DNA from: a virus
DNA length: 64,000 nucleotides
Virus record (IMG/VR): IMGVR_UViG_3300028874_000370
Coordinates: 1-64,000 of that record
Direction: 5' to 3' (one strand)
Shown: piece after piece, positions 1,802 to 12,168 of the stretch
Layout of the letters: each line of letters starts with the position of its first letter
Position numbering within the stretch: the stretch's first letter is position 1
The notes under the pieces: generated by a model
What the model saw: only the letters and a program-made list of their open reading frames with translations
The model's database searches: none
What the model was told of the DNA's origin: nothing
Program-made: the position numbers and the translations under genes

Positions 1802-2149
1802 CTATTGGATACTACGTTTATTTTGTATTACATCACGCAAATGGCCAAGGTATTCTAATGCTTCATCCACATCTTCAAAAATCATACACGATGATTTTTT
1901 ATTACCGGACAAGTTGTAATCTGCGGTCCGTATAAATGAAATTGATCCATCTACCAGTTTGAACAATAGTTCGGCACCTTGATCTTCAATAAGACACCCC
2001 GCCCTAAGTGATGTGAATCCGTTCAATCGTTCAGTGACCAAATAATAATCTTGACCAACCACTAAATCATCATACTTGACATTCGGGGTCGATAAACTCT
2101 TGATGAAATTAGCAGCAGCTTTAAATCTATTAAAGTTTAGGAATTCCAT
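1802..2149 (-). CDS. hypothetical protein
   Basis: 115 aa ORF. Confidence 0.6.
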   Translation of the reverse strand: MEFLNFNRFKAAANFIKSLSTPNVKYDDLVVGQDYYLVTERLNGFTSLRAGCLIEDQGAELLFKLVDGSISFIRTADYNLSGNKKSSCMIFEDVDEALEYLGHLRDVIQNKRSIQ

Positions 2150-2187
2150 ATTATTATGAGGGCCAATTAGAAGATTTATAAATTATA

Positions 2188-2574
2188 TCATATTGCTAAT
2201 TCCGCCACCGCATTTTTAATATTATAAAATCTGGAAGATTTTACTGCTCGGAATTTATTAATCCACAATTGTTCTTTACGTTTTAATTCTACTTCATCTT
2301 GGACATATTCAAGAATGACTCTCTTGAATTTAGTGATCCCATAATATTCGAAGACTCGTTTAAACCTAGACCCCGAGCCTCTATATTCATCTACTACGAT
2401 CCCTTTATGCGATCCCAGGTAGTATTTGTCTTCAGGAATGCATTTCCATATGTATATAAACCCAGCATAGTCCCTAGGACGTTCCTGCACATTCAGGGCC
2501 TCAAAGTTTTCTAATAAAGGATTTGTATGTGTTGTGATAATTGGTTTGAGCATAATGTATGAATAAATATCCAT
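2188..2574 (-). CDS. GIY-YIG (Seg-like) endonuclease catalytic domain, no C-terminal DNA-binding region
   Basis: GFIYIW..DKYYLGSH..YRGSG..E..I..FYN matches the T4 Seg-type GIY-YIG module. Confidence 0.75.
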   Translation of the reverse strand: MDIYSYIMLKPIITTHTNPLLENFEALNVQERPRDYAGFIYIWKCIPEDKYYLGSHKGIVVDEYRGSGSRFKRVFEYYGITKFKRVILEYVQDEVELKRKEQLWINKFRAVKSSRFYNIKNAVAELAI

Positions 2575-2593
2575 ACATATTTATGATCTCAAA

Positions 2594-3394
2594 ATGTCAA
2601 ACTCTTTTTTTTGCAACCTTCATCAATGGGCGGGGAATGATCCTAACAAGGAACTTCAGTGGTTTAGTACTGATAACCAAGAATCTTATATTCCTTCCAA
2701 TAGCATTTACACTCCAGAATCATTCACTTACAAATTCAATGAAGCAAATTTCAGATGCGATTCGTTTGACATGACCGGCAACTCGAGTATCATGTTTATC
2801 GGTTGTTCATTTACTATGGGTGTTGGTTTACCAGTTGAACATTGTTGGCCATATCTTTTATTAGACCAAATTAAAAAAGACACCGGATTATCCATCCCAT
2901 ATTGGAATCTCGGAATAACAGCATCCGGAACAGATTCTCATGTTAGAACCATATATCAATATATAGACAAGCTCAAACCAAAAATTATTTTTTTATTAGC
3001 AGCGAGTGCTAGAGTTAGAGATATTCCAACACATGAATTAATTTCTATGTGGGGCCCAACTTATAAATCCAACAATGTTCCGAAAGAAGCCGAAACCATT
3101 TTATGCAACGACCATTGGATTAAATACCAAGTAGAGAAAAATATGGCATTCATTGATCTCTTAGTTCAGAAATCTGGTGCAACATTGATTTGGGATCAAT
3201 GGGGAAGACGTGATAAAAAAGAATACGAGAATGTTTTAACTCTTCCATCATTCAAAAATAAAGTGAGCGAACAATTCATGACCTATGAAACCAAAGATGC
3301 CAGAGATGGAAAACATTTTGGATATTCCTCTAACCTGGCATATAAAAATTCAATCTACTCAGAATACAAAGATCTAATATTAAGCAGTCTATAA
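2594..3394 (+). CDS. SGNH/GDSL-hydrolase-like protein
   Basis: block I FIGCSFTMGVG, block II WNLGITASG, C-terminal DGKH. Confidence 0.6.
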   Translation: MSNSFFCNLHQWAGNDPNKELQWFSTDNQESYIPSNSIYTPESFTYKFNEANFRCDSFDMTGNSSIMFIGCSFTMGVGLPVEHCWPYLLLDQIKKDTGLSIPYWNLGITASGTDSHVRTIYQYIDKLKPKIIFLLAASARVRDIPTHELISMWGPTYKSNNVPKEAETILCNDHWIKYQVEKNMAFIDLLVQKSGATLIWDQWGRRDKKEYENVLTLPSFKNKVSEQFMTYETKDARDGKHFGYSSNLAYKNSIYSEYKDLILSSL

Positions 3395-3481
3395 TTACCA
3401 AATATTTCTATTTTGATTTTTATGATGATTCTTTGGAGGTTTTTATAAATAGTAAGATCAATCCTTTAACGGAGAAATACA

Positions 3482-4126
3482 ATGACAACAATTTCATTAG
3501 CTTTATTTTACAAACAGTTTGGTGAAGGTAACCTAGAAGTAGGAACCGAAGATAATGTAGTAGTTTTTAATCAAACTTCTGCTAATGCGCCAACTCCATC
3601 ATTTACTGCTACTGTTCCAACTACTGTCACATCGGCCTTGCCTCCATTGACAGTAACTTTTACTGATACATCAACAACTCCAGGCGGAACAAGCATTTCG
3701 GCTTGGCTTTGGAATTTTGGTGATAGTGTCACATCAACTTCACAAAACCCAACTCATATCTATACAGATATGGGCGTATATGATGTTACATTAACTGTAA
3801 CAAATGCAGATGGTTCTGCTTCAGTGATCCAATCTGGGTTAGTTGATATCTGGGATACTAAGCAAGTTACACCAAGCCAAACCATCCTAGGGACACAGAA
3901 TACCGTAGCTTCATTTACTTCTGTTGCTACAGCACTATCAGTTGCATTTACTGATACTTCAACTGGTTCGCCATATGAATGGACATGGGATTTTGGTGAT
4001 GGTAATAAATCACGTCTTCAAAACCCAACAAATGTTTATGCTTTGGCCGGAACATATACCGTAACACTATCAGCACAAAATGCTGGTGGTTCTGACATTT
4101 CATCGACTACAATCACAGTAACATAA
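3482..4126 (+). CDS. PKD (Ig-like) repeat protein, probable virion decoration protein
   Basis: two PKD signatures WNFGDSVTSTSQNPTHIY and WDFGDGNKSRLQNPTNVY; TATAAATA late-type motif at about 3444-3451; GGAG SD. Confidence 0.85.
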   Translation: MTTISLALFYKQFGEGNLEVGTEDNVVVFNQTSANAPTPSFTATVPTTVTSALPPLTVTFTDTSTTPGGTSISAWLWNFGDSVTSTSQNPTHIYTDMGVYDVTLTVTNADGSASVIQSGLVDIWDTKQVTPSQTILGTQNTVASFTSVATALSVAFTDTSTGSPYEWTWDFGDGNKSRLQNPTNVYALAGTYTVTLSAQNAGGSDISSTTITVT

Positions 4127-4379: not shown

Positions 4380-4867
4380 TATTCTTTCCTATTTGAGTGG
4401 TGATAATCATAGCTTAAATGTCGGCCTAACACTTAAGAACCTATCGAGAGCTCTAAGAATATCACGAACTTTCGGCAAACGACAGGGATCATTCTACGTT
4501 TCCATCTTTACAAATGGAACACCGGGTCTCTCCGGCCTGAACTTCTATGAATATCAATGAGATGTTTCCAGTTTTATCCAACATACTGGTTTAATTTTCG
4601 GGCATTGGAGACCCTAGTTAGTTTTGCACAGTTCTTATCCGTGAACTACTAACAAAAATCGTCTGGTCATACTTCTCTAAACCGATGTTCTTTAATTATT
4701 AATTTGTACTAATGCAACTGGAGTAATAGTCCCGTCATCATTTGTCCAAGTTGATTGGATGATGTCATAAGATCCAAACGGCAAACCATCATCTGATTCG
4801 ACTAATAAATCCATTTCGGGATTTAGCAATTGCAATTTTAAAATTGATTGAGCAACAGTAAGTGGTT

Positions 4868-5140
4868 TCATGCTACAAGTGGTCCATCTTCAGGTGATTG
4901 TTCTGGGGTGTCTACAACAGGAACTACATCAACAGGATATTTTTCTGGGTGATGAAACGAATCCGCCAATAGATCAACACGCTTTTTCATTTCGATTGAA
5001 ATTTCAGTAGTGTGTTCAAGTAAAGATTTAAAAACAATCCAACTTGATAATTCTGAAGCAGCAAGAATAACACTTTCATTTTTCGTCTTAATGCCATGAC
5101 GACACAGATCCAACAACGAATTAGTTGAGATTAAAGACAT
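4868..5140 (-). CDS. hypothetical protein
   Basis: 90 aa, TAAGGT SD; first gene downstream of the ncRNA block. Confidence 0.6.
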   Translation of the reverse strand: MSLISTNSLLDLCRHGIKTKNESVILAASELSSWIVFKSLLEHTTEISIEMKKRVDLLADSFHHPEKYPVDVVPVVDTPEQSPEDGPLVA

Positions 5141-5164
5141 GTTTACCTTATTATTTTTATGCTG

Positions 5165-5226
5165 AAATCGGACGGCGGATAAGAATCACGCTGCTCTGTG
5201 ATTGTTATGGAACGCCTCTTCCGAAT
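5165..5226 (-). ncRNA. putative structured RNA element 4 (interrupted hairpin)
   Basis: UCGGA/UCCGA, GGCG/CGCC and AAUCAC/GUGAUU nested helices. Confidence 0.4.
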
Positions 5227-5230
5227 TATT

Positions 5231-5446
5231 GAAAATACATTTTGCTGAGAACTGCTAATCTGTATAATATTCCAACACCCATGCATAGGCAAAAAGGAAC
5301 AGAATCCAAATTATAACCCGATCTTACTGGTTCGGATAACTTACCACGCACACCCGGCACGTTGACTAGACTAATGCGGTGTACAACTTCATGGCATCAC
5401 TTAATCAGTCGAAATTAAGCAATTGTTCTCAGCAAAATATATTCTC
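5231..5446 (-). ncRNA. putative structured ncRNA 3 (about 216 nt)
   Basis: terminal stem 5231-5252/5425-5446 (22 bp, 2 G.U); internal helices AUUGCUUAAUU/GAUUAAGUGAU, GUACACC/GGUGUGC, AUCCGA/UCGGGU, UCUGU/ACAGA; no ORF of 60 aa or more. Confidence 0.7.
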
Positions 5447-5456
5447 TTGCTTTGAT

Positions 5457-5723
5457 ATAAAAAATATTTTGTTGGAAGCCTGATGTAACTTTCGTCTTGA
5501 CTAGTGGTAGTGCACTGCACTAGACGTCTTGAAAATTGCATTGATATTCTCTTCGGTATATCAATCTACCGTACAACTAGCGCACCGGCTTTGCCGCACT
5601 GCCCGTCCATGACAAATAGAGGAACAGTACTTAGACGCCACTCTCAGTGGAGGCGTGTTCGCTGATCATCGTGAAATAGCTGTCCACTACTACCAAATTG
5701 GCTCCCAACAAAATATTTTCTAT
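5457..5723 (-). ncRNA. putative structured ncRNA 2 (about 267 nt)
   Basis: terminal stem 5457-5480/5700-5723 (24 bp, 2 G.U); internal helices GGUAGU/ACUACC, GGACAG/CUGUUC, ACGCC/GGCGU, AUUGAUAU/AUAUCAAU. Confidence 0.7.
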
Positions 5724-5724
5724 T

Positions 5725-6252
5725 TAGAAATCATTGTGTTAGACCTTCATGTCCCGAGCATGAAGGCCACTACGTCTATTTTCGGGCTCTGGATCCCTAG
5801 ATCAATTATGGCATGATCGAAAATCCGGTGGCAAACCAGTTTATACTATCCACATATCTAGCCTTGATATGGGCTAATACAAAGCAAGCCGTAGACCTAT
5901 ATCTCGCTAGAAACTATAGGGTTCTTGCTAGGTGAATGCTGTACAAATCGGCGATTATCTCTCTCAAATTTTGTCTCTTGTCCTTATTGGACAGTTACTA
6001 TAGCTAGGTAAAGGGCATCATTTGGGTCATTCCCAGTGTGGTAGTTGAGGCGTGGCATCGATACATAATATACCGGAACGCCTCTATCATAAACTACGGA
6101 TATGATTAATCATTAGTTCACGCTGCATAATCCGATTCACGGATTGGCAGCAATGATTGATTATCACTCTCAATAGGACCTCGAAAGAATCCTACTCACT
6201 TCTTACTTCTTACTGTGTGTTGGCATTTAGTGATCCAACACAATGATTTCTA
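5725..6252 (-). ncRNA. putative large structured ncRNA 1 (about 528 nt)
   Basis: terminal stem 5725-5743/6234-6252 (19 bp, 1 G.U); many internal hairpins (GCUGC..AAUCCG/CGGAUU..GCAGC, GAGGCGU/ACGCCUC, UGUCC/GGACA, CCUAUA/UAUAGG, CCUUCAUG/CAUGAAGG). Confidence 0.75.
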
Positions 6253-6258
6253 TTTTGT

Positions 6259-6292
6259 TTTTAAAGAGCGTTGCTGTTTTGTGTTTCACAGC
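6259..6292 (-). promoter_or_regulatory. boxB-like hairpin plus boxA antitermination element
   Basis: GCUGU-gaaacacaaa-ACAGC followed by CGCTCTTTAAAA (boxA consensus (C/T)GCTCTTTAACA, 1 mismatch). Confidence 0.65.
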
Positions 6293-6302
6293 GTATGAGA
6301 TG

Positions 6303-6331
6303 ATTATACATAGGCCCTTTTTATTTGTACA
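6303..6331 (-). promoter_or_regulatory. sigma70-type / T4-early-like promoter for the ncRNA block
   Basis: TGTACA-17 nt-TATAAT; the same architecture recurs elsewhere in the window. Confidence 0.7.
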
Positions 6332-6339
6332 TAATTATT

Positions 6340-7608
6340 TTACATTCTCCAAACTTTAATTTTTGCTTCTTCGAATAGTGTTCTTTCCATCTTCCCTTTG
6401 ACATCTACGAAAGTTCCGTTGTTTTTTATTTTGGACAAGATTTGGTTCTCTCCAAGATTTAAAAGTTCACGGTGTGGAGTAGCAAGAACTACGATGTCAC
6501 ATTGTGGAATAGCTTCAAAGCTAACACCAGTCACTGCATAATTTTTAATTACATCGTGAACATCTGCAATCGGATCATGGATATAAAGTTTTTTGATTCC
6601 GGATCTGGCGAATTCGAGGACTAGATCTTCGACTTTAGAATTTCTCATGTCCTTACAATTTTCTTTGAATGTCAATCCAAGTATAGCAACAGTCAAGGTA
6701 TTTGGATCTTTATCCTTCAAGGCTTCACTTACTATAAATGATGCCATTCCATTATTTACCTGACGGGCATGTTTTAATAACTTGGCATCATACTTAACCG
6801 ACTCTGCCTTACTGATTAGATAGTATGGATCAACCCCAATACAATGGCCGCCAACTAAACCAGGACGATACCCAACAAAATTCCATTTCGACGAAGCAGC
6901 ATCTATCACTTCATTTGTGTCCAAACCGAGCTTATTAAATATCATAGAGAGTTCATTCATTAGCGCAATATTCACATCTCGTTGAATATTTTCTATAACC
7001 TTTGCAGCCTCCGCCACGCGTATGCTAGGAGCTTTATAAATTCCGGCTGTAATGATAGATTCATATAGGTGAGCCACGGCGTCTAGGGATGCCTGAGTGT
7101 CTCCTGCTACTATCTTTTTAATTTTAGTTACTGTTCTTTCTTTGTCGCCTGGATTGATTCGCTCTGGTGAATATCCAATATTAAAATCTTGAAGCCAAGT
7201 CATTCCAGAATGTTGTTCTAGAACAGGAACACAGATTTCTTCAGTGGCTCCTGGATACACGGTTGATTCATAGATCACAACTGATCCACGTTTCATGTGT
7301 TGTCCTACCAAAGCACTAGCGTCGATTAAACAAGTGAAATCTGGAACGTTGTGTTGATTGACCGGTGTTGGCATTGCTATGATAATGAAATCGGCTTCAT
7401 TGATCATAGCAATATCGGTGGTTGGAATAAAATAAGATGAGCTTAAAAAATCCTGAGAATCTAGTTCTCCATTAGGATCGATATGCTTTTTATATGACTC
7501 GATTTTTGACTCTGAAATATCATAGCCAATTGTTGTAAATTGTTTGCCAAATTCAATGGCGAGCGGAAGGCCTACATAGCCTAAACCGATGACTGCAATC
7601 TGTTTCAT
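6340..7608 (-). CDS. UDP-N-acetylhexosamine/nucleotide-sugar 6-dehydrogenase (WbpO/TviB/WecC family)
   Basis: GLGYVGLP Rossmann motif, YESTVYPG, SPERINPG, catalytic GGHCIGVDP, GLTFKENC. Confidence 0.9.
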   Translation of the reverse strand: MKQIAVIGLGYVGLPLAIEFGKQFTTIGYDISESKIESYKKHIDPNGELDSQDFLSSSYFIPTTDIAMINEADFIIIAMPTPVNQHNVPDFTCLIDASALVGQHMKRGSVVIYESTVYPGATEEICVPVLEQHSGMTWLQDFNIGYSPERINPGDKERTVTKIKKIVAGDTQASLDAVAHLYESIITAGIYKAPSIRVAEAAKVIENIQRDVNIALMNELSMIFNKLGLDTNEVIDAASSKWNFVGYRPGLVGGHCIGVDPYYLISKAESVKYDAKLLKHARQVNNGMASFIVSEALKDKDPNTLTVAILGLTFKENCKDMRNSKVEDLVLEFARSGIKKLYIHDPIADVHDVIKNYAVTGVSFEAIPQCDIVVLATPHRELLNLGENQILSKIKNNGTFVDVKGKMERTLFEEAKIKVWRM

Positions 7609-7680
7609 TTTGATCTTTGGCCGAATTAGTTATACTTGTATTTATTAGGCAAATCAAAACGGAATGCAGTAAAACGCAGA

Positions 7681-7703
7681 AAAGGACCATAAGAAGGTCC
7701 TTT
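7681..7703 (-). terminator. intrinsic terminator
   Basis: AAAGGACC-7 nt-GGTCCTTT followed by T run on the minus strand. Confidence 0.55.
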
Positions 7704-7800
7704 CCTTATCCAACTGGAACTGTCATACGAGGCGACAGCATCACCCATTTCATTTTGTTCATGCGATTCTCCGTTATAACGATAATGAGGATATAACAAC

Positions 7801-11209: not shown

Positions 11210-11524
11210 TCAAATATATAAAGAAGGATCATCCCATCCTGGTTGGAGTGGATTGATACAAAGAAGGAAATCTTGTTGATTCATCATTGCAATCGTGATC
11301 AATTCGTCAACAGACCAGAATTTCGAATCGTCTAGTTGATTCAGGATTTCTTGACCGAGTTGAGGCCAGGATTTTTCAGATTGCATTGTTGGGTATTCGG
11401 CTGGATCAAACTTACCAATCGGGTAAGTTTTACCGAAGAACGTGAATTGAGCAATCAAATCTTCTAACTTGATTTTAATACCCATTCCAGTATAGAGGTC
11501 ACCATTTGATTCTTGTGGCATGAT
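11210..11524 (-). CDS. hypothetical protein
   Basis: ORF with AGGAG SD just before ..IIMPQES; start approximate. Confidence 0.55.
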   Translation of the reverse strand: MMPQESNGDLYTGMGIKIKLEDLIAQFTFFGKTYPIGKFDPAEYPTMQSEKSWPQLGQEILNQLDDSKFWSVDELITIAMMNQQDFLLCINPLQPGWDDPSLYI

Positions 11525-11811
11525 AATCACTCCTATTTGTTCATAAGAATGATTATATACCAAAGACTTTAGAAATATAAAATTATTTAAGTGACTGCAG
11601 GCGCATCACTTCCTTTCTCACTAAGAAGCCATTTTTCAGTTAATGCTTTAATCTGTTCATATGACTGTTTATCATAATATCCAATGATTTTACCATGCGG
11701 CCACATAGAGGCTCGCCATTTTGTGGACCAATGCAACAACATCCACCACTGCCGACACATGGGACCGCTTTAGATAACCACTGGCGAATTGCTAGTTGTT
11801 CTGGATACATA

Positions 11812-12168
11812 TTATTTTCCTGTCATTCGTTTATATTCAAGACCTTCAATTTCTTCTCGTATAGAAAAATACTTATTAGTCCATTTGGGATCATCAGGCT
11901 TAAATCCAAAACCATTGACTTGGCAAGTATGCATTGTACATGAGGGTCTTAAGTGCGGGGCTGCTATACATCCATTAGGACCCATCAATGGTAACTTTGG
12001 GTGGTCTGTTCTTTCAAGAATTGTGTTCCATGATTCTTTTGCATACTCTATTGTAGCTTCACAATATTCACCAGAGCAACAAGAATGCGGAAGACGACAC
12101 TTACCGCATTCCGGATTAGTGAGGTCATATAATGACCTATACAATTTTACCAGGTGTTCTTCAGCCAT
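11812..12168 (-). CDS. Cys-rich protein, CxxCxxxxxCC (YkgJ/FliB-like metal cluster)
   Basis: CGKCRLPHSCC...GC...RPSC..HTC. Confidence 0.55.
   Translation of the reverse strand: MAEEHLVKLYRSLYDLTNPECGKCRLPHSCCSGEYCEATIEYAKESWNTILERTDHPKLPLMGPNGCIAAPHLRPSCTMHTCQVNGFGFKPDDPKWTNKYFSIREEIEGLEYKRMTGK

Follow-up and report, generated by a model that had tools for sequence, protein, structure and literature searches.

In archaea and eukaryotes, there is ample documentation of circular RNAs that arise from dedicated processing; for bacteria and their viruses, we know of little beyond intron circles. Excision at a bulge-helix-bulge (BHB) motif followed by ligation by RtcB yields circular pre-rRNA intermediates and circular small RNAs in archaea, and is likewise found in Cyanidioschyzon merolae for its permuted tRNA genes. 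RNase III shows little preference for sequence and leaves products with a 2-nt 3' overhang and with 5'-phosphate and 3'-hydroxyl ends. The tRNA cluster of phage T4 encodes the stable RNAs C and D (species 1 and 2), which are co-transcribed and processed and whose function is obscure; to our knowledge they share no common closing helix, and no circular form of them has been reported. The Y RNAs of bacteria and phages (YrlA, RF02553) are encoded beside Ro60/Rsr, and certain bacteria have RtcB as a neighbouring gene (Chen et al. 2014, PMC4201824). The subject of this work is a tandem array of three non-coding units, RNA1 to RNA3, on the minus strand of the first 64 kb (64,000 nt, called the window) of the 102 kb IMG/VR record IMGVR_UViG_3300028874_000370 (G000), a fragment of a giant myovirus estimated to be 30% complete. 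The array occupies a 1.2 kb gap without open reading frames (ORFs) between a UDP-glucose dehydrogenase gene and a 90-aa ORF, and the two flanks of each unit pair into a long closing helix, which we propose to be the site at which the enclosed RNA is excised and circularised.

A first-pass annotation had drawn attention to these helices and stated that their 5' arms align without gaps and agree at 11 of 18 positions. Our recount gave the same numbers, with the 18-nt arm sequences located at 6251-6234, 5721-5704 and 5445-5428 of the minus strand. The further statement that each variable position is matched by its own 3' arm was borne out as well: over 21 aligned columns, every 5' arm pairs with its own 3' arm at 21/21 positions and with the 3' arms of the other units at only 13-19/21, which means that every unit compensates for its own variable positions. 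The non-Watson-Crick pairs in the three helices are G-U pairs, and they are so on the transcribed (minus) strand only. The helices do have the size of an RNase III substrate, as the annotated length of about two helical turns implies, but the stems are longer than the 18 bp described (Table 1). Spacers of 1 nt and 10 nt separate neighbouring helices. As had also been noted, the enclosed bodies differ in length and sequence; they show no blastn similarity to one another, and each of the three RNAs folds better than its own shuffles (Table 1). When the 16-nt arm consensus was scanned for without mismatch, three sites were obtained in the entire 102 kb record, all of them in this array.

The same cassettes stand at the syntenic site in the records of two related phages, likewise from peat. 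G001 (185 kb; terminase 72% identity; 53% complete) keeps the gene order around the locus and has three stem-closed units (~300, 230 and 227 nt) between the homologues of the dehydrogenase and of the 90-aa ORF, and G006 (40 kb; dehydrogenase 69% identity; 11% complete) has one stem-closed unit of 340 nt, called U1, the arms of which are nearly those of RNA2 and which is preceded by a promoter and a leader matching those of the window. The order of UDP-glucose dehydrogenase, array and 90-aa ORF is kept in both, and blastn of the window against the relatives' cassette loci found no DNA similarity. Elsewhere in G001 (L039, 132510-132821 of G001), there is an extra cassette with a 25-bp closing helix starting UAGAAAAC.

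Comparison of eight cassettes from the three phages gave self pairing at 20-21/21 columns and cross pairing at 7-20/21, with three to five pair types at most columns. Near-fixed are an A-U pair at columns 2 and 4, an A/G-U pair at column 5 and, in seven of the eight, a U-A pair at column 10. Fourteen G-U pairs occur on the transcribed strand, while A-C oppositions within the helices number two, both at the single mismatch column of the G001 units A and B; the remaining counted A-C oppositions fall at the inner ends and so outside the helices. Fold z-scores range from -4.2 to -5.6 across all three phages. Judged by this covariation, the closing helix is under selection as an RNA structure, has sequence information in addition, and is a conserved functional element of a modular cassette. 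The modular design with a common processing helix that the first-pass annotation had suggested is therefore retained: compensatory change, different cargos and a make-up that varies between relatives all agree with it.

Searches beyond these three phages returned little. Rfam gave chance-level matches only, both in the window at gathering scores and at the locus with E values up to 10, and the same was seen for G001 and G006. Neither the window nor G006 yielded a tRNA or tmRNA call when ARAGORN was run on linear DNA, and the locus and U1 of G006 were both without a blastn match among 50,697 phage records. The arm consensus is absent from L007-L009, which belong to a group of distant dehydrogenase homologues (L007-L009 and L043-L053, 38-48% identity), and in L007 the region downstream of the homologue is densely coding; UDP-glucose dehydrogenase is not a reliable cassette marker outside this clade. 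Matches to the arm pattern in the viral contigs L028 and L054-L067 (except L061, which is G006) were rejected as chance hits in coding DNA that lack a downstream complement.

Parts of the locus are contained in two metatranscriptome runs, X23 from peat and X24 from soil. The X23 contig spans 5255-5419 at a depth of 8.8 and corresponds to the RNA3 body without its arms. The X24 contig (174 nt, depth 3.3, minus strand) runs from 5594 to 5474 and then continues from 5709 to 5657, which amounts to a step back of 236 nt on the same strand, with zero letters common to both sides of the join and hence no microhomology. Both joined ends fall inside the RNA2 helix, in line with the earlier expectation that RNA ends should map within the stems; no other pair of ends was recovered. 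Column 14, where the conserved G directly follows the U-run (AUUUU|GUUGGG), is the place of G5709, and the 3' end at C5474 lies in UUCC|AACAAAA. As G5709 pairs with C5471 and C5474 with G5706, the two ends are offset by 3 bp, leaving the retained product with a 3-nt 5' overhang, and in the joined 236-nt form a GUU loop closes off the 7 innermost base pairs of the helix. The U|G step at the 5' cut site is kept in the window cassettes and in U1, and the G001 cassettes are mismatched exactly there: the mismatch column of the three syntenic G001 units, which aligns with G13 of the 18-nt arms, is the one that holds the first nucleotide of the putative RNA2 circle.

The X24 join fits a 236-nt circle or an end-to-end ligation, and the option of circles that the first-pass annotation had raised is thereby strengthened, by one contig at a depth of 3.3. 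Both RNA-run contigs lie wholly within the predicted circles, whereas contigs from DNA runs cross arms and spacers. As read from the sequence, the cDNA 3' end at the join (...CAAC) is not complementary to the acceptor site, which makes template switching by reverse transcriptase unlikely. Since RNA libraries can hold DNA, these contigs indicate rather than show transcription of the locus. Uncovered stretches, and runs with a small share of matching words, were given no weight as to absence or habitat.

Our preferred reading, to which we assign a probability of roughly 0.55, is that the closing helix is cut and the ends are ligated to give a covalently closed RNA; confidence stays moderate because one contig underlies it. 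The flanks of each cassette form a conserved helix, about two turns long, comprising an A/U-rich outer half that starts with NARAAA, the special column 14 (G-C in the window phage) and an inner half of 7-10 bp. This helix would juxtapose both ends of the cargo and act as the excision site, with the 5' strand cut immediately 5' of column 14 and the 3' strand cut 3 bp further in, and ligation of the ends would then produce a closed RNA with its inner helix capped by a 3-nt loop (GUU in RNA2). Either a nuclease would cut across the helix, or a first cut would be followed by trimming before ligation. RNA1 and RNA3 may be processed in analogy to RNA2 (predicted joins in Table 1), and the product is presumably a monomeric circle rather than a concatemer. 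The RNAs may serve as exonuclease-resistant scaffolds or decoys tied to the Ro60/Y-RNA and RNA-repair module found in the array of a close relative.

Candidates for the ligase would be a PF09414 (Rnl2-type) enzyme of the phage or RtcB of the host. Genes of the PF09414 RNA ligase family are present in G000 at 98703-99803, outside the window (366 aa), and in G001 at 125760-126455 (231 aa), the latter about 6 kb from the extra G001 cassette. Jumbo phages of this type often have several such ligases, and some have a Ro60/TROVE protein (PMC7824862). For the G000 protein, no solved-structure relative was detectable by sequence. A wider proposition is more tentative, and we would put it somewhat short of even odds: in a clade of giant phages, DNA-encoded cassettes would give rise to non-coding RNAs that are covalently closed circles, through a conserved and sequence-specific helix of the flanks that is cut with a 3-nt 5' stagger by a nuclease and sealed by an RNA ligase, and with unrelated cargos that can be swapped (Y-RNA-like and tRNA-mimic ones included).

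Several observations weigh against excision and ligation. The circle derives from the single X24 contig of one library, which covers 174 of the 236 nt; its join is equally compatible with a head-to-tail concatemer as with a monomeric circle, and another possible source is a rare tandem duplication in the genome whose breakpoints fall within the arms. No junction of RNA1 or RNA3 was seen, the RNA3 contig ending before the stem, and the cassette is carried by three phages only. On the enzymatic side, the PF09414 proteins of G000 and G001 have no pairwise similarity and are not orthologous, and no nuclease gene was identified in the phage fragments. RtcB (PF01139) was not found in G000, G001 and G006, which are 30%, 53% and 11% complete, EndA was not searched for, and Rnl1 was not found in these incomplete fragments in a search without positive control. 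An RNase III domain (PF14622) was likewise not found in the phage fragment, and we know of no RNase that the 3-nt 5' stagger fits.

The cargos themselves fall into more than one type. RNA2, the G001 units B and C and U1 of G006 are one family, as judged from a shared hairpin with a 10-nt loop (Table 1) in which 6/6 stem pairs covary and which in the relatives carries the loops ACCGAAGAAA, GCCGAUGAGA and ACCACCGAGA. Cassettes of this RNA2 type are present once in the window, twice in G001 and once in G006, where Y-RNA-like units follow; RNA1 and RNA3 have no demonstrated homologues. After U1, the G006 array continues with five smaller stem-closed units, P1-P5, which have the head motif UUGCGUAG...UUACUUC together with T-arm and D-arm motifs. 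These lie at 4245-5400 of L042, equivalent to ~8450-7030 of the G006 minus strand, where the head motif reads UUGCGUAGGUAAGAGUUACUUC, and in P1 and P5 hardly anything separates the T arm from the D arm. In P4, the 7-bp acceptor stem is perfect and a CCA (GCCA) is encoded; ARAGORN calls this unit as tRNA-Gly only with circular topology. A TROVE/Ro60 ORF of 541 aa (~2130-3722) follows on the same strand of G006, about 5 kb downstream of U1.

The same head motif occurs in other phage contigs. Its units in two small ones, L072 and L074, score 44.5 and 38.9 bits with the YrlA model of Rfam (gathering score 69) and directly precede a gene read as Ro60, the TROVE match being confirmed in the record of L074. 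An interpretation of P1-P5 as circularly permuted tRNA genes was dropped, as the same head motif precedes Ro60 genes in units that match the YrlA model; by their motifs, P1-P5 are YrlA-like Y RNAs, and the tRNA-like domain of YrlA is permuted by design (PMC4201824). Because U1 shares its operon with P1-P5 and Ro60, the window cassettes are members of a kind of operon in which, in a close relative, RNAs that partner Ro60 are encoded as well. Ro60 is also present in L073, a phage contig of 345 kb with three stem-closed units of 161, 254 and 150 nt at 11523-12057; their arms of 20-22 bp overlap, every 3' arm also serving as a portion of the 5' arm that follows, and ordinary tRNA genes are mixed with Y-RNA-like units at this locus. 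In G001, ARAGORN called 50 tRNA genes within 66300-152000, one of which (c107830-108178) has a 257-nt 'intron'.

Closing helices of 21-24 bp, about two turns, that flank each RNA of a tandem array behind one promoter and a boxA-like leader are also what would be expected of ordinary RNase III stems releasing linear stable RNAs from a polycistronic precursor, with the back-join as a minor side product or artefact, and the 5'-phosphate and 3'-hydroxyl ends left by this enzyme could be joined by ATP-dependent PF09414-family ligases after trimming. Yet the sole recovered ends are 3 bp offset with the 5' end protruding, instead of a 2-nt 3' overhang, and the base pairs at columns 2, 4, 5, 6, 9 and 10 are kept across phages without other DNA similarity. 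The lack of an RNase III domain in the phage fragments concerns a phage-encoded enzyme only, and a cut by host RNase III followed by trimming is possible. Direct release by RNase III, as the first-pass annotation had suggested, thus does not agree with the RNA2 ends, and we regard plain RNase III stems as unlikely, if well worth keeping in mind; excision with circularisation is favoured over simple RNase III release because the single mapped end pair lies within the helix and is joined. Far less credible still is an origin of the arms as inverted repeats at the DNA level, i.e. as ends of elements similar to miniature inverted-repeat transposable elements or as invertible segments. Three adjacent inverted-repeat pairs with a common consensus would suit such an origin, but copies of a mobile element should cross-pair as well as they self-pair (13-19 versus 21 found), all wobbles are G-U on one strand, between relatives the arms differ by compensatory substitutions at a constant operon position, the consensus is absent elsewhere in the 102 kb record, and the observed join is strand-preserving and hence no inversion. 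Covariation together with one-strand G-U pairs rules DNA-level repeats out for practical purposes.

The RNAs could further be Ro60 partners of the Y-RNA kind, with the helix as an uncut terminal stem that only protects the ends or docks a protein. In favour of this, U1 with its near-RNA2 arms heads the G006 array of five head-motif units with TROVE/Ro60 downstream on the same strand, and such units in L072 and L074 match YrlA directly before a Ro60/TROVE gene. RNA2 and U1 moreover have GGUAG...YUAY after the 5' arm, and the RNA2-family loop has CCGAAG, both of which resemble Y-RNA motifs (PMC4201824). The ACCGAAG of the RNA2 family sits in an internal hairpin loop; the GNCGAAN0-1G motif of Y RNAs is found near their 5' end (PMC4201824), and no motif of this type is present in RNA1 or RNA3. 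The YrlA model (RF02553), however, had no match in 4900-6600 of the window at E values up to 10, with the L072 and L074 units as positive control. RNA1-3 also have neither a T arm nor a D arm, ARAGORN with circular topology finding P4 but nothing in them. Y RNA genes lie on the same strand as a Ro60/TROVE gene and within about 4 kb of it; the 102 kb record holds no TROVE gene, though the contig ends 4.7 kb downstream of RNA3. Finally, the RNA contigs are without the outer helix and one has its ends inside the helix, which leaves an uncut terminal stem improbable.

The features of the locus are collected in Table 1. The gap is best explained as a single operon consisting of promoter, leader and three stable non-coding RNAs. 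The -10 region of the promoter and the sequence after it are kept in G006, where the leader is nearly identical ahead of U1; in G001, the hairpin of the leader is kept and the boxA-like word is not. Downstream of the 90-aa ORF and a 59-aa ORF, a non-coding stretch at 4380-4690 (minus strand) is strongly conserved with 7500-7790 of G006, with conserved blocks such as AUUAAACCAGUAU..UGGAUAA.ACUGGAAACAUC and GAAGUUCAGGCCGGAGA..CCGGUG, then CGUAG; Rfam gave no convincing match for this stretch, which is probably a further structured RNA of the same operon.

Table 1. Positions of the cassettes, their proposed products and the adjoining features in the window.
Feature	Position	Strand	Remarks
UDP-glucose dehydrogenase gene	7608-6340	minus	upstream border of the gap
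Sigma-70-like promoter, TGTACA - 17 nt - TATAAT	6303..6331	minus	consensus scan 10/12; consensus match only
Leader: hairpin 6293-6269, then GCUCUUUAAAA (6269-6259), rrn boxA-like	6253..6296	minus	read from the sequence
RNA1 cassette, 528 nt	5725..6252	minus	arms 6252-6232 / 5745-5725; 21 bp, 2 G-U; fold z -4.24
RNA2 cassette, 267 nt	5457..5723	minus	arms 5723-5700 / 5480-5457; 24 bp, 2 G-U; fold z -5.54
RNA3 cassette, 216 nt	5231..5446	minus	arms 5446-5425 / 5252-5231; 22 bp, 2 G-U; fold z -5.60
RNA2 processed form, 236 nt	5474..5709	minus	3' end C5474 joined to 5' end G5709; X24 contig
RNA1 predicted join, 499 nt	G6239 to 5741	minus	analogy with RNA2; prediction only
RNA3 predicted join, 187 nt	G5433 to 5247	minus	analogy with RNA2; prediction only
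RNA2-family hairpin: stem, 10-nt loop ACCGAAGAGA, stem	5540..5565	minus	also in G001 units B, C and G006 U1
90-aa ORF, conserved neighbour after the array	4868..5140	minus	homologues with 43-44% identity beside or inside the G001 and G006 arrays

For the 90-aa protein, the sole Pfam match fell short of the family cut-off (PF02807, E 0.0071); PHROGs gave none and the Atlas no usable one. The identical protein is present in eight contigs; used as a query of viral and metagenome contigs, the ORF recovered only G001, and tblastn against the 50,697 phage records found no match. A 389-aa neighbour used as a query had no relatives either. The large terminase shares 52% identity with that of Ralstonia phage RsoM2USA and about 40% with those of other jumbo phages. 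The phage DNA was matched almost exclusively in peat metagenomes; a freshwater metagenome contig (run X20) spanning the RNA3-RNA2 boundary differs by A>C at 5374 and by CCC inserted after 5391, so the phage has a close relative in a habitat other than peat.

In the papers searched, neither giant-phage genes for circular RNAs nor Y RNAs in circular form were reported. Should the proposed excision and ligation be confirmed, a new RNA-processing signal would be at hand, namely a short, portable helix sufficient for excising and closing any cargo; it would imply an as-yet undescribed nuclease, and the helix could be of use in making stable circular RNAs in bacteria. The cassettes extend the phage RNA family that travels with Ro60 and RNA-repair genes, pointing to a role in the conflict between phage and host over RNA integrity.

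Compared with described systems, the array shares with the RNase III stems of rrn operons and of the phage T7 early region that the flanks of each stable RNA pair over about two turns and mark its release; the boxA-like leader ahead of the cassettes adds to the likeness with rrn, and the roughly 20 bp or more that such stems need are reached by the cassette helices of 21, 24 and 22 bp. Unlike in those stems, the cassette ends have a 3-nt 5' stagger and are apparently ligated, the sequence of the helix is conserved, and the cargos are neither rRNA nor tRNA. With RNAs C and D of phage T4, the cassettes have in common that they are stable phage RNAs of a stable-RNA cluster, released by processing. 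Y RNAs resemble them in being tandem small RNA genes with modular payloads, the 5' and 3' ends of which form a long stem; RNA1-3 are, however, ~216-528 nt long compared to 80-130 nt for characterised Y RNAs, and differ by lacking a tRNA-like domain, a match to YrlA and, within the recovered fragment, a Ro60 gene. The BHB motif with its two 3-nt bulges, 4 bp apart, is not seen in the cassettes, as the window helices are continuous and the G001 units have one 1x1 mismatch; the stagger is, in our reading, of opposite handedness to the BHB cut, and the host of the cassettes is presumably bacterial. What the BHB systems have in common with the processing proposed here is that a helix of leader and trailer positions two cuts and that the excised RNA is circularised. 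If it acts in this manner, the cassette helix would be to viruses of bacteria what BHB circularisation is to archaea, and a natural parallel to engineered circular RNA designs that combine a stem with a ligase.
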